The position numbers were made by a program, and so were the translations under genes. From an uncultured Chlamydiales bacterium (lineage in GTDB: Bacteria > Chlamydiota > Chlamydiia > Chlamydiales > JAAKFR01), in contig OY969414.1 of the NCBI GenBank assembly GCA_963699155.1, positions 1,611,757 through 1,675,756 on the forward strand: a DNA stretch of 64,000 nucleotides. The letters are read 5' to 3'. Of the stretch, positions 8,777 to 57,049 are shown piece after piece. The notes under the pieces were generated by a model. The model saw only the letters and a program-made list of their open reading frames with translations. It did no database searches and was not told the DNA's origin. Every line of letters begins with the position of its first letter. Within the stretch, counting starts at the first letter, position 1.

Positions 8777-8866
8777 TTATAATGTTGCCGTAACCATAAT
8801 AGGAATGTGGTCAGAAGGTCTCTTGAATTCTCTAATAATCTGCCCAATTCTCTTTTGCTCAAGCAA
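8777..8866 (-). pseudogene. Detached C-terminal fragment of the EEP gene at 55865
   Basis: Reads LLEQK-RIGQIIREFKRPSDHIPIMVTATL-stop. Joins in frame to the ORF at 55865-57049 through the shared 15-mer. Confidence 0.9.
8852..8866 (+). repeat. 15-bp target-site duplication, copy A (CTTTTGCTCAAGCAA)
   Basis: Exact reverse complement of 57035-57049; both copies abut IS ends. Confidence 0.9.
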
Positions 8867-8935
8867 TATACTGCCACCGAGAACATTGGACACGGATTTG
8901 CGATATACTTAATCGCAAAACCAAGGAGATCCAAC

Positions 8936-9247
8936 ATGGAAGAAGGTGGTCAAATCAAACGATGGACCGCGGCACGTAAGATTGAAGTTGTCTTACGTCT
9001 ATTAAAAGGAGAGTCCATCGATAAACTAAGTCGAGAACTCGGTGTAGAGGCTTATTTAATCGAAGAATGGCATTCAAAAGCAATTCAGGGCATGGAAGTG
9101 GGATTAAAAATGCGTTCCGAAGACCCTGTTCAACATGAATTAGACCATGCTAAGAAACGCCTGGGAGAGCTCATGATGGAAAACGAGCTCTTGCAGATAA
9201 AGGCCAACAAAGCACCGGGTTTTCGTATGGGGAGGTCCAAGAAATGA
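8936..9247 (+). CDS. IS OrfA (helix-turn-helix protein)
   Basis: RWTAARKIEVVLRLLKGES..LSRELGV; SD AAGGAG; ATGA overlap with orfB. Confidence 0.9.
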   Translation: MEEGGQIKRWTAARKIEVVLRLLKGESIDKLSRELGVEAYLIEEWHSKAIQGMEVGLKMRSEDPVQHELDHAKKRLGELMMENELLQIKANKAPGFRMGRSKK

Positions 9248-10203
9248 GCGAGAAGATCTCTCCTTCAACCCATCTTAAATATGGTGTAGAATTAGTTTGT
9301 ACAGTGTGGAAGTTTCCTCGCTCATCTTTCTATCATAATAGAAAGCGGCCATATAAACCTAAGGGGCTTCGAGGAAAAAAGCCGACCCTCTCAGACAATG
9401 ATCTATTGGAGGCCATCAAAAAAGACATATCCGAAAGCCACTTTCAAGGAGAAGGACATCGAAAAATACATGCTCGATTAAAACGCTTCAAGAAACTAAA
9501 TATTGGGCGGAATCGAGTTTTGAAGCTAATGAGAGAGCATAAAATGCTCTCTCCGTATCGCGTTGAACAGGGAAAAGAACGCCTACATGATGGACGCATT
9601 ACAACAGACCGCCCCAATGAAATGTGGGGTACAGATGCCGCTAAGATTTTCACCCTCGAAGATGGGTGGGTGTGGTTTTTCGGAGTAATTGAACATTGGA
9701 ATGCTGAATGTCTAGGGTGGCATGTCACAAAGAAAGGAAGTCGATTTGCTGCAATAGAAGCCTTAAATAAGGCTGTTGAGGTTGTTTTTAGCAAAACATC
9801 CTCTAATGTGGCTCGTGGGGTCAGTTTACGAGTAGATCATGGCTCTCAATTTATGTCAGAAGGCTTTATTAACCAAACACGGTACTGGGGCATAAGTATA
9901 AGCAAGGGCTTTGTGAAGGAGCCTGAAACCAACGGGGTGATAGAAAGGTTTCACAGAACATTTAAGGAGCAGATTGTACACGGTAGGCATTATCATGGCC
10001 TAGAAGACTTTAGGAAGGCTGTAGCAGAGTTCATTAAGTCGTACAATGAACACTGGCTTTTAGAAAAGCTAGATTATCACTCCCCTCTGGAAGCCAGGGA
10101 GTTATATTCCAAAGAACACCCTTCTGAACAAATTTTATCGGCGTTAGCTGAGGTTGGAGAGGGAGCACGGCTACTTTGTTCTGGCAGCCAAAGAGGACGT
10201 TAA
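9244..10203 (+). CDS. IS OrfB, DDE integrase-core transposase
   Basis: PNEMWGTD, RVDHGSQF, NGVIERFHRTFKE. Confidence 0.93.
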   Translation: MSEKISPSTHLKYGVELVCTVWKFPRSSFYHNRKRPYKPKGLRGKKPTLSDNDLLEAIKKDISESHFQGEGHRKIHARLKRFKKLNIGRNRVLKLMREHKMLSPYRVEQGKERLHDGRITTDRPNEMWGTDAAKIFTLEDGWVWFFGVIEHWNAECLGWHVTKKGSRFAAIEALNKAVEVVFSKTSSNVARGVSLRVDHGSQFMSEGFINQTRYWGISISKGFVKEPETNGVIERFHRTFKEQIVHGRHYHGLEDFRKAVAEFIKSYNEHWLLEKLDYHSPLEARELYSKEHPSEQILSALAEVGEGARLLCSGSQRGR

Positions 10204-54051: not shown

Positions 54052-54944
54052 TCATCGACGGTAAAGCCATCGCAGAAGAGATTCAGCGCAAGATTCGCAA
54101 AGAGATTCTCTCCCTTTCCAATCCACCCGGCCTTGCTGTGATTATTCTCGGCGAAAATCCCAGTTCACAATCCTATGTGGCGATGAAAACGAAGGCTTCC
54201 CAAGCTGTCGGCATCCACTCCACGCTCTACCGTTTGCCCGCTTCGACTCCCGAGCTAGAGCTTCTCACCCTCATTCAGGAGTTGAATCACAATCCCCGAG
54301 TCGATGGCATTCTCGTGCAGCTCCCCTTGCCTGCCCACATCTCGCCGATGAAGGTGGTGGAAGCAATCCATCCCGATAAAGATGTCGATGGGTTCCATCC
54401 CACCAATCTTGGAAAACTCCTTTTAGGCCAGAGGTCAGGGTTTATTCCCTGCACCCCACTCGGGATCTATGAGCTTTTGAACCACTCACAGATCTCTGTC
54501 GAAGGTAAAGAGGTTGTCATCGTCGGAAGGAGCGCCATTGTGGGAAAACCACTCGCTGCACTGCTTATGCAAAATAGCCCCGGCTGCAACGCCACTGTGA
54601 CCGTGGTCCATAGCAAAACGCACCATCTCAAAGCCCATACCTTGCGTGCTGAGATCCTCGTCGCTGCTATCGGCTCGCCCCGCTATATCCAAGCCGATAT
54701 GGTGAAAGAGGGGGCTGTAGTGATCGATGTGGGGATCAACCGTATCGATGATGCCAGCCTCGCCAGAGGCTATCGGATTGTCGGTGATGTCGATTTTGAG
54801 AGTGTCGCTCCCAAAACCAGCGCCATCACACCGGTGCCTAAAGGGGTAGGACCGATGACAGTCGCCATGCTTTTGAAAAACACCCTCCTTAGCCATCAAA
54901 GAAGAAATGCGTCGCCTACTCCTCTTACTGATTGTTCTTGCTAG
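54048..54944 (+). CDS. folD: Methylenetetrahydrofolate dehydrogenase/cyclohydrolase
   Basis: IDGKAIA, GILVQLPLP, KDVDGFHP, PCTP, TPVP.GVGPMT. Confidence 0.97.
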   Translation: MIIDGKAIAEEIQRKIRKEILSLSNPPGLAVIILGENPSSQSYVAMKTKASQAVGIHSTLYRLPASTPELELLTLIQELNHNPRVDGILVQLPLPAHISPMKVVEAIHPDKDVDGFHPTNLGKLLLGQRSGFIPCTPLGIYELLNHSQISVEGKEVVIVGRSAIVGKPLAALLMQNSPGCNATVTVVHSKTHHLKAHTLRAEILVAAIGSPRYIQADMVKEGAVVIDVGINRIDDASLARGYRIVGDVDFESVAPKTSAITPVPKGVGPMTVAMLLKNTLLSHQRRNASPTPLTDCSC

Positions 54945-55803
54945 CTGTAGTCAAAAGCATCCCACCCGCTTCGAGGGCTGCGCGATGACGATCCCCTACT
55001 GCATCCAACTTGGAGATCCTGTCGAAGAAGAGCAGATCCAGCAGATCATTCTTGATACCTTTGCCGAGATGAATGAGATCTACAACAACTGGAATCCCCA
55101 CTCTGAAGTTTCCCAATTAAGAACGCTATCTGCCCACCAACAGGTGAAACTTTCAGACGAGCTTGCCGGTTTTTTAGCCTTTGTAGATACCATTGTCAGA
55201 CAAACAGAAGGCCGCTTTGATCCTACTGTTGAGCCATTACACCTGCTTTGGAAAGAGAATTTACGGGAAGGCCATCTTCCCAATAGCTCCGCAGTCACTG
55301 CTCTGCAACCATCCACAGGCTGGTCTCATCTCCATCTTGAGGGAATCACCTTCTGGAAAGATGATGCACTCACCTCTCTCGATCTCTGCGGTGTCGCAAA
55401 AGGGCATGCGGTCGATCTCCTCGTCGAACGGTTGGCAGAGGCGGGATACACTTCAATTTATGTCGAGTGGGGCGGCGAAATCCGAACGCAGGGTCAACAT
55501 CCTTCGGGTCGCCCCTGGAGAGTTGCTATCTACGGCTCCAAAAATATCGATTTATCAGACGTTGCGATCGCAACCAGTGGCAGTTATCTCCAGAACTGGA
55601 TCGTCGATGGAGAGAGCTATACCCACATCATCGATCCTCAAACAGGGAGTCCACTGAAAAACTCCCCCATCACGAGCGTCACCGTTCTCGCCCCGACTTG
55701 TGCTGAAGCCGATGCCTATGCGACGGCTCTGATGCTCTTCCCATCAATCGAATCTGCCGAAGTGTGGGCTACTCAGAGGCAGATTCAAGCGATCATTTGG
55801 TAA
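54907..55803 (+). CDS. apbE: FAD:protein FMN transferase ApbE (lipoprotein)
   Basis: Lipobox LASC, FDPTV, DL.GVAKG..VD, ATSG.Y, HIIDP.TG, ADAYATAL. Confidence 0.95.
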   Translation: MRRLLLLLIVLASCSQKHPTRFEGCAMTIPYCIQLGDPVEEEQIQQIILDTFAEMNEIYNNWNPHSEVSQLRTLSAHQQVKLSDELAGFLAFVDTIVRQTEGRFDPTVEPLHLLWKENLREGHLPNSSAVTALQPSTGWSHLHLEGITFWKDDALTSLDLCGVAKGHAVDLLVERLAEAGYTSIYVEWGGEIRTQGQHPSGRPWRVAIYGSKNIDLSDVAIATSGSYLQNWIVDGESYTHIIDPQTGSPLKNSPITSVTVLAPTCAEADAYATALMLFPSIESAEVWATQRQIQAIIW

Positions 55804-55864
55804 TTTCTTGATCCAAATTTAACAATCCGGCATCATCCAATAAAAAAATTCTTTTGTGGTATTT

Positions 55865-57049
55865 ATGACCACACAACCGACCACCGAAAAATCTCCCCCA
55901 ACCATTCCTCAGCCTATTGCTGAGGCAAGCAGCTGCAATCCACTCAATCTCATCATCACTGCGTTGGTTATCACTACATTAGGATTACTTGCTGCTGGTG
56001 GCTACTTCCTCTTTGCGACAGCCAATACCATCATGGGTTGGTCGCTGTTGGGTGGAGGGCTCTTCTTGGCATGCATAGTGCCGCCTATTTCCATCCTCTT
56101 GTCAAGCCGGAGTGGCCAGAGTTCCCCAACCCCAGGCCGCCCAGATCCAGTCCCACCCACCTTCCCAGAATACATTGAAGGGAGTAGTGCCGTGCTCAGC
56201 ATCATTGAGGTGAGACCCCATCCTGTTCACACACCTGGTGTCTACTCAGCTCTATTTTGGAATGTAGGGACCGAAATGGACTATGCTAATATTTGTTTCC
56301 TGCGAGACCAAATTGATGCAGGAAAATCTCTTTCTGCGGCATTTTCTCAGCTTCCTAAACAGACAGAACCTGCACTTGTTCCTTCTGAGGCCGATGCTCA
56401 AGCTCGCCCTGGAATGTTCCGCGAAACCCTCACTGTTGCAAGTCCTGATCTGATTTTCTTGGCAGATACTTGGGAGATGGGTGCGGAAGAACTTAAGGCG
56501 ATGCTTCCCCCAGATTATCTCTTTGTCTCCCATCAAGATGGTGCAAGACGTAACAACTGCACTGTTGCTTGGAAGATGGAATCTTTTACCCTCCTGGATC
56601 ACCGTGGGCTCACCTATACAAAAGAGATGATTCCACCTAATGGAAGAAAACCGAACACACTCGTTCGCTTACAAGACAGAGAGGGTAAAAAAATCGCCGC
56701 AATCGCAGGCCATCTCGAAGGATTTAATTTGAATTTTGCCGAACTTCCTGATGTTGAGAGAGCAAAAGCTTTGGAAGCCGCAAAATTAGGCGATAAGCAA
56801 CTGGAATCCGACTTGACAGTTCTCAACTCAATGGAGGCGGATCTCCATATTTATGCAGCTGATTTCAATGCAGACAGATCTATTTACCCTAAACGGTTTA
56901 CAATCATTGAGGGGATGGGCTACAAAAAAGCTCCTGTAAATTCCTATGCGACAGTCTATGATGTCCATGTGAAAGATGCTGCAGGTGACCCATCACCTCT
57001 ACGCCTCGATGAGATCTATTTCAAAGGGGCTAAATTGCTTGAGCAAAAG
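55865..57049 (+). pseudogene. Inc-like membrane-anchored endonuclease/exonuclease/phosphatase (EEP) protein, IS-interrupted
   Basis: Bilobed hydrophobic N-terminus; FWNV, GHL, ADFNAD, RLDEIY. The SDH motif is at 8777-8851. The ORF now reads 18 codons into the IS (stop at 57106). Confidence 0.8.
57035..57049 (-). repeat. 15-bp target-site duplication, copy B
   Basis: TTGCTTGAGCAAAAG, the reverse complement of 8852-8866. Confidence 0.9.

Follow-up and report, generated by a model that had tools for sequence, protein, structure and literature searches.

The window analysed here, 64,000 nucleotides of the chromosome of an uncultured Chlamydiales bacterium, carries a 46,688-bp segment (positions 10362-57049) that stands inverted with respect to the gene order of relatives and is bounded by two inverted copies of a 1495-bp insertion sequence (IS) with an IS3-like architecture. 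We consider it likely that this 46.7-kb segment was flipped recently by homologous recombination between the two IS copies, after an insertion into a gene for a protein with an EEP-type domain. In the course of events that we propose, one IS copy would have inserted into the gene for a membrane-anchored EEP-domain protein, generating its usual 15-bp target duplication and inactivating the gene at that step, and the intervening DNA would then have been flipped when this copy recombined with another one, which lay in inverted orientation about 47 kb away. Such a history would leave the gene as it is now arranged, with its first 398 codons at 55856-57049 on the plus strand and its last 24, including the catalytic SDH motif, at 8777-8851 on the minus strand. 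We infer the order of these steps, and recombination as their mechanism, from the repeats, the duplication, the gene pieces and the gene order described below.

Two inverted IS copies share one split target duplication

A repeat search recovered a single long inverted repeat in the 64-kb window, with arms at 8867-10361 and 57050-58544 that measure 1495 nt each and enclose 46,688 nt. The left arm, IS copy 1, lies on the plus strand, and the right arm, IS copy 2, on the minus strand; both were also recovered by BLAST against the whole genome, and copy 1 was assigned as IS3-like with the Pfam and NCBIfam models described below. According to BLAST, the arms are 99.93% identical, their sole mismatch falling at IS position 946, where copy 2 has a T and copy 1 a C. 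Between the arms, the segment contains in order repeat-rich DNA, an HI0074-type gene and a 4288-amino-acid open reading frame (ORF), and at its other end folD, apbE and a 5′ gene fragment that stops at copy 2.

One short sequence recurs at two of the IS borders, on the outer side of copy 1 and on the inner side of copy 2. Positions 8852-8866, adjoining the left (orfA-proximal) end of copy 1, read CTTTTGCTCAAGCAA, and positions 57035-57049, adjoining the right end of copy 2, read TTGCTTGAGCAAAAG. A preliminary description of this DNA had reported these 15-mers to be exact reverse complements of each other, and direct reading of the sequence bears this out. When the flanks are compared in the orientation of the IS, the stretch to the left of copy 1 and the stretch to the right of copy 2 are identical over exactly 15 bp (15 of 15 bases); by simple arithmetic (4^-15), a 15-base match at two fixed positions has a chance of about 1e-9. 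The 15-mer is a genuine target duplication of the IS. Its length is the normal footprint of the element, because intact direct target duplications of 14 or 15 bp accompany seven of the 15 IS copies or fragments in the source genome (G000), the other eight having none of their own, and because a sister element with about 70-75% identity (G000:1080341-1081948) also has a duplication of 15 bp. The splitting of such a footprint between two copies is therefore meaningful.

The duplication lies within two distant pieces of one EEP-type gene

Both halves of the split duplication belong to open frames. On the plus strand, the frame at 55856-57049 encodes 398 residues from a GTG codon, or 395 from the first ATG at 55865, and ends with ...YFKGAKLLEQK at the edge of copy 2, its open frame continuing into the IS up to position 57106. 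On the minus strand, the frame at 8777-8866 encodes LLEQKRIGQIIREFKRPSDHIPIMVTATL followed by a stop codon; it comprises the five duplicated codons (LLEQK) and the last 24 codons of the gene, with an RPSDH motif. Rejoined and counted from the methionine at residue 4, the pieces add up to 395 + 24 = 419 amino acids, in agreement with the earlier statement that the halves rejoin in frame to a protein of about 419 residues in which the SDH motif is restored. Judging from the translations and from the fit to homologues given below, the two distant fragments are one former gene of about 419 codons. The title of the preliminary description attributed the cut to the inversion. The gene is indeed found in two distant pieces, but it is the insertion of the IS that cut it, the inversion having only separated the halves.

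The 398-residue piece itself had no Pfam match up to E = 10, and a word-index protein search with this long piece returned only the window's own protein. A language-model look-up led to PF03372 clusters at 0.88 and was taken as a lead only. A HMMER search against 1.84 billion representatives recovered 34 non-self proteins, the best with 33% identity, and the homologues are 390-474 amino acids long. The cut-off (24.5 bits) of PF03372, the endonuclease/exonuclease/phosphatase (EEP) family, was reached by eight of the ten homologues scanned, one of the others scoring 23.6 bits and one having no match; the homologue from relative G011 matched PF03372 at 32 bits. In an alignment of eight homologues with the two pieces kept separate, the long piece breaks off immediately ahead of the conserved C-terminal R-P/A-S-D-H-L/I-P block, onto which the short piece aligns, so that the pieces fit the homologues end to end. 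Taken together, the two pieces contain the EEP blocks WN, H, DFN, D and SDH, and the LQE conserved in the homologues reads LAD here. In EEP enzymes, the LQE block holds a metal-binding glutamate.

The predicted product of the 5′ fragment has a two-lobed hydrophobic region at its N-terminus, followed by most of an EEP domain. At residues ~30-85 of the window protein, and likewise in the homologues, two adjacent hydrophobic stretches of about 20 residues precede the enzyme domain. Chlamydial inclusion-membrane (Inc) proteins have a two-lobed hydrophobic domain, which the two adjacent N-terminal stretches of the broken gene and its homologues may resemble; unlike Inc proteins, the broken gene has a C-terminal domain of the EEP family. 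It was likely a host-interaction gene, with a membrane-anchored EEP enzyme as its predicted product.

Exact-pattern scans for an uninterrupted allele returned nothing, either with the 27 nt at 8840-8866 in metagenome contigs or with the 30 nt at 57020-57049 in genome and metagenome contigs. An intact orthologue closely related to the broken gene is not available. Of the homologues in the relatives searched, the best one, that of G011, contains an in-frame TGA (L032 2335-2337) immediately ahead of its own RPSDH motif; this copy may be truncated too, or the TGA may be a sequencing error.

Four of five relatives retain the un-flipped order of apbE and smpB

The genes apbE and smpB were searched in five relatives (G001, G002, G003, G012 and G016). 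In four of them the two genes are convergent and close, at distances of 2.4 kb in G002, 5.6 kb in G003, 1.7 kb in G012 and 35 bp in G016, and in the fifth, the fragmented G001, they are found on separate contigs. In the window, smpB (6307-6759) and apbE (54907-55803) lie on the same strand, 48 kb apart. The former belongs to a block at 4066-7917 that contains recF (minus strand), dnaN (minus), smpB (plus), a 120-amino-acid ORF (minus) and a parA-like gene (minus), assigned by Pfam and synteny, and that adjoins apbE in the relatives. The latter forms a pair with folD at 54048-55803 on the plus strand, identified with Pfam, which is located beside parA-smpB in the relatives.

The window proteins were further compared by tblastn with two relatives, over 100 kb in G002 and over 40 kb in G003. 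Both relatives have a colinear run composed of a 2TM gene, mgtE, a miaB-like gene, ftsX, folD and apbE, followed directly by parA, the 120-amino-acid ORF, smpB, dnaN and recF, and the colinearity with G002 extends more than 38 kb beyond recF. In the window, the block at 38664-55803 keeps its colinearity with both G002 and G003, yet its orientation to the recF-dnaN-smpB-parA block is flipped. With 10362-57049 turned back, the order of the relatives is restored, which leaves smpB (ending at 6759) and apbE (ending at 55803) separated by 2107 + 1246 - 15 = ~3.3 kb, excluding the IS. The same distance had been put forward in the preliminary description, and our arithmetic agrees with it. That description had also proposed a synteny check against relatives, which returned the un-flipped order at the gene-side breakpoint in four of the five genomes. 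The gene order that it had cited for comparison was that of Chlamydia trachomatis, and the five relatives are used here instead. Its proposal of an IS insertion in the EEP gene followed by inversion is supported by the 14-15-bp footprint of the element, by the fit of the pieces to the homologues and by this gene order.

Directly adjoining the 3′ gene fragment, at 8080-8601 on the minus strand, is a 173-amino-acid ORF in which two stretches match the NHLP leader-peptide model of precursors of ribosomally synthesized and post-translationally modified peptides. This NHLP-type ORF was not found at the syntenic spot in G002 or G003, nor does the EEP gene occupy that spot in the relatives compared by tblastn. 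Because these relatives have neither gene there, the EEP gene and the NHLP-type ORF are, by this sequence comparison, particular to the lineage of the source genome.

The IS combines an IS3-like architecture with several genomic variants

In copy 1, orfA (8936-9247) encodes a helix-turn-helix (HTH) protein and orfB (9244-10203) a protein with an rve/DDE domain. The second frame is in the -1 register relative to the first, since (9244 - 8936) mod 3 = 2, and the heptamer G_GGT_TTT at 9217-9223 is predicted as a possible slippery site. In Pfam, orfA matched HTH_Tnp_1 at 23.7 bits, slightly below the cut-off of 24.1, and orfB matched PF00665 (rve) at 38.2 bits (cut-off, 32.6) as well as rve_3, rve_2 and HTH_21. 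With the two ORFs scored separately and not as a fusion, the NCBIfam IS3 model gave 155.7 bits for orfB alone, over model positions 97-368 and against an equivalog cut-off of 160 bits, and 29 bits for orfA alone, over positions 3-82. Of the NCBIfam models, that of IS3 was the best match for orfB, the IS481 model scoring 92.6 bits (cut-off, 224) and the ISNCY model 22.8 bits. The right end of the element reads ...GATACA and the left end TATACTGCC..., that is, TA where IS3 has TG.

The 1495-bp variant corresponds to a 1415-bp form of the IS with an 80-bp insert at IS positions 1295-1374. Four copies of it are present in the source genome, at G000:C1 1430183-1431673 and 1441163-1442657 and as copies 1 and 2 of the window. 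None of the four has a duplication of its own, as opposed to seven of the ten complete 1415-bp copies that do. One 1495-bp copy adjoins an IS copy that is truncated at position 1173, its right part gone. The T at IS position 946 is common to window copy 2 and the copy at G000:1437962, which weakly favours two pre-existing, slightly different copies over one fresh duplication.

Limits of the evidence for the proposed inversion

Several observations qualify the proposed inversion, and they arise at the second breakpoint, in the surrounding gene order, in the nucleotide skew and in the reads. At the second breakpoint, flank comparison showed that the inner flank of copy 1 (10362-10770) consists of dispersed repeats, with about 90 BLAST hits across the genome and no broken gene, and that the outer flank of copy 2 (58545-58606) is a stretch of 62 bp up to the stop codon of a phosphoglucomutase-type gene (58607-60253, minus strand; assigned by Pfam). 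No duplication is shared between the flanks at 10362 and 58545, neither of which matches a flank of another IS copy. It follows that, by the time of the recombination, the second IS was no simple insertion and that one or more additional events must have occurred, so that an account by two clean insertions and their recombination is incomplete. Most simply, the second IS had a prior history that involved an earlier deletion or rearrangement. Compared with the flanks of the six further copies devoid of a duplication, the orphan flanks likewise gave no match. With respect to gene order, the 28 kb at 10362-38663 and the neighbourhood of the phosphoglucomutase gene have no counterpart in the G002 regions fetched. 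The G002 regions around its phosphoglucomutase gene and to the left of its 2TM gene map elsewhere in the source genome, and G002 differs from the source genome by further rearrangements nearby.

The cumulative GC skew of the source genome is lowest near 0.34 Mb and peaks at 1.60-1.62 Mb (G000:C1); the peak, presumably the terminus, corresponds to the left end of the segment (window 1-10000). The skew is +0.027 over the 100 kb to the left, -0.031 in the segment and -0.022 over the 100 kb to the right, and the corresponding blocks of G002 are all of the same sign. The segment thereby has a skew opposite to that of the block it adjoins in the relatives, which is consistent with a flip too recent for the skew to have re-equilibrated. 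Nevertheless, the segment abuts the skew switch and its skew also matches that of its right neighbour, and skew alone can therefore neither date nor prove the flip. GC skew was considered as a test of orientation and rejected, either orientation giving a tidy profile. We also observed that G002 switches skew sign near its own syntenic region (~1.62 Mb).

Public reads were available as nine metagenome runs from three studies, none of which contains half of the sampled words. The four best runs (X1 to X4, soil metagenomes from one study) were mapped onto positions 4000-14000. Pieces identical to the unique flanks occurred at a depth of ~1-3 and pieces identical to the IS at ~5-12. In these four runs no read or contig spans either IS, short contigs stopping at the IS ends, and the physical order therefore comes from the assembly alone. 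A single piece, from run X4 (8847-9302), runs across an IS end, and the junction that it covers is shared by both arrangements. The four IS flanks checked are the same in these runs as in the assembly, and the four loose ends checked all correspond to other IS sites of the source genome, with no alternative junction among them.

Alternative explanations

These read data bear on whether the flip exists in the chromosome at all. Had the assembly been misjoined, the two halves of the gene would be adjacent around one IS and the second IS would lie between the repeat-rich flank and the phosphoglucomutase gene, the flanks having been exchanged across the 1.5-kb repeat. The sequence by itself cannot separate the two arrangements, the short contigs of the four runs end at the IS, and the un-flipped order is that of the relatives. 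A misjoin is nonetheless unlikely in our view, given that the genome was assembled into one closed contig of 2,399,326 bp, scored 100% complete, that resolves 15 IS copies or fragments with copy-specific differences, nested insertions and arrays of ~111-bp repeats; such resolution would be unlikely without reads longer than 1.5 kb, and we infer that the assembly represents the real chromosome. If it does, the absence of a reciprocal duplication raises the question of whether the flip and the insertion were a single event. A donor IS located between the repeat-rich flank and the phosphoglucomutase gene could have transposed replicatively and intramolecularly into the EEP gene, which would have produced the second copy, the inversion and the split duplication in one step. 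A split, inverted duplication with no second one to pair with is the pattern of intramolecular replicative transposition, and the scarcity of duplications among copies of the 1495-bp variant (0 of 4, versus 7 of 10 for complete 1415-bp copies) is in line with it, but this contrast is not made of independent cases, as two of the four copies come from the same event and one is nested. Elements of the IS3 family move by a copy-out/paste-in route through a circular intermediate, which yields simple insertions, and seven simple insertions with clean duplications are indeed found in the source genome. Furthermore, such a donor should itself be flanked by a duplication at 58545/10362, where there is none, and the two copies differ at position 946, the variant base being shared with a third copy. 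An origin in one step is on these grounds improbable.

A different possibility is that the segment is a programmed, reversible switch that controls the split gene or its neighbours, and two inverted repeats of 1.5 kb are a substrate on which homologous recombination could act reversibly. The preliminary description had suggested that the segment could still be switchable, which does not hold in a functional sense. The IS stays inside the gene in both orientations, so a flip back cannot mend the gene and no functional switch results. In addition, no recombinase or invertase family was found by Pfam among the 43 window ORFs scanned, the repeats are entire 1.5-kb transposable elements rather than short recombination sites, and the other junction involves nothing but repeat DNA and a gene's 3′ end, with no gene or promoter arrangement visibly changed. 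We regard a programmed switch as very improbable, and the flip has no evident regulatory role. Recombination between two inverted IS copies, one of them inserted in the EEP gene and the other with a more complex past, is the reading that we retain.

Other features around the second breakpoint

Dispersed G+C-rich repeats are found at 10362-10770, 24437-25150 and 36650-36698. They include a unit of ~111 bp, present as tandem arrays at other places in the genome, and are accompanied by short inverted repeats. The 4288-amino-acid ORF (11468-24334, minus strand) matches no Pfam family except for a weak match to DUF3638 (E = 0.004), and it sits in the 28-kb block at 10362-38663 that is absent from the syntenic G002 regions fetched. 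Next to the phosphoglucomutase-type gene, a glycogen-phosphorylase-type gene (DUF3417 and Phosphorylase; 60257-62860, minus strand) is present as two same-frame ORFs of 522 and 336 amino acids. Between them is a short stretch in which three in-frame stops occur around 61268-61294, and this split gene is probably a pseudogene.

Discussion

The event described here, in an IS-rich genome, is an ordinary rearrangement of a known kind, and its mechanism being textbook, the event itself teaches little that is new. Its value is that of a clean, datable example of an expanding IS that would have reshaped the terminus-proximal region of an obligate intracellular bacterium. On the proposed reading, one likely host-interaction gene, encoding a predicted membrane-anchored EEP enzyme, was destroyed, about 27 genes changed orientation relative to replication, and the apparent GC-skew switch was displaced by ~47 kb. 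Annotation of this genome should treat the two orphan fragments, which lie 48 kb apart, as a single pseudogene.

A more useful by-product than the inversion is the long target duplication in an IS3-like lineage. The element resembles the IS3 family in its length of ~1.4-1.5 kb, in its layout, with an HTH-encoding orfA ahead of an rve/DDE orfB that is read in the -1 frame, in its right end CA and in having the IS3 model as its best NCBIfam match, and its database relatives are annotated as IS3 family or InsO. Unlike IS3 elements, it has TA instead of TG at its left end, an orfB score slightly under the IS3 cut-off and target duplications of 14-15 bp, the duplications of IS3 subgroups being 3, 4 or 5 bp according to one publication (PMC10045372). 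In the same publication, IS481-family elements and those of the IS1202 group are described as relatives of IS3 with discrete duplication lengths of ~5, ~15 and ~25 bp, and the eukaryotic IS481EU elements as encoding a single protein (PMC10045372). The present element is like these groups in that a duplication of ~15 bp is a recognised class among them and that their transposases are related to those of IS3. Prokaryotic IS481 and IS1202 elements have a single transposase ORF, unlike the two-ORF IS3 layout found here, and the IS481 and ISNCY model scores of the present element are low.

The closest transposase relatives in annotated plasmids have 39-49% amino-acid identity and are labelled IS3 family. 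Among the eight examined, three have TG...CA ends, a subterminal GGACAC or GACAC motif similar to that of the present element and clean 14-bp duplications, namely, those from Burkholderia gladioli (L069), Caballeronia (L071) and Skermanella (L070). The other five are uninformative on duplication length: L068 has no recognisable right end, and the remaining four of the eight have no direct repeat of at least 10 bp at their recognisable ends, a result that does not indicate their duplication length. These relatives were examined with a direct-repeat scan, a generic inverted-repeat scan being too noisy in GC-rich DNA. In the literature searched, no IS3-type element was described whose duplications measure 14-15 bp. 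We tentatively suggest, as a possibility that could well prove wrong, an undescribed lineage of IS3 architecture that has a stagger of 14-15 bp, about one helical turn longer than that of canonical IS3 and similar to that of some IS481/IS1202 elements, and that is distributed over a chlamydia-like genome and plasmids of Alpha- and Betaproteobacteria. This lineage may be an undescribed link between IS3 and the IS481/IS1202 elements. If so, it would be a natural intermediate for studying how transposase geometry sets duplication length, and, if indeed undescribed, it would bear on how the target-cleavage stagger is set in IS3, IS481 and IS1202 transposases.

Inversions mediated by homologous recombination between IS copies are known from Yersinia pestis, Bordetella pertussis, Shigella and other IS-rich bacteria. 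In the titles and first abstract lines of papers on chlamydiae, IS and inversion, we found nothing on the present event. Compared with the known IS-mediated inversions, the present case is unlike them in that the reciprocal split duplication is absent, that the 15-bp duplication is far longer than usual for an element of this kind and that one breakpoint lies at a GC-skew switch. It is like them in that near-identical inverted IS copies bound the segment, one duplication is split between the two copies, the gene hit by the IS is found in two distant pieces, and undoing the flip restores the order of the relatives.

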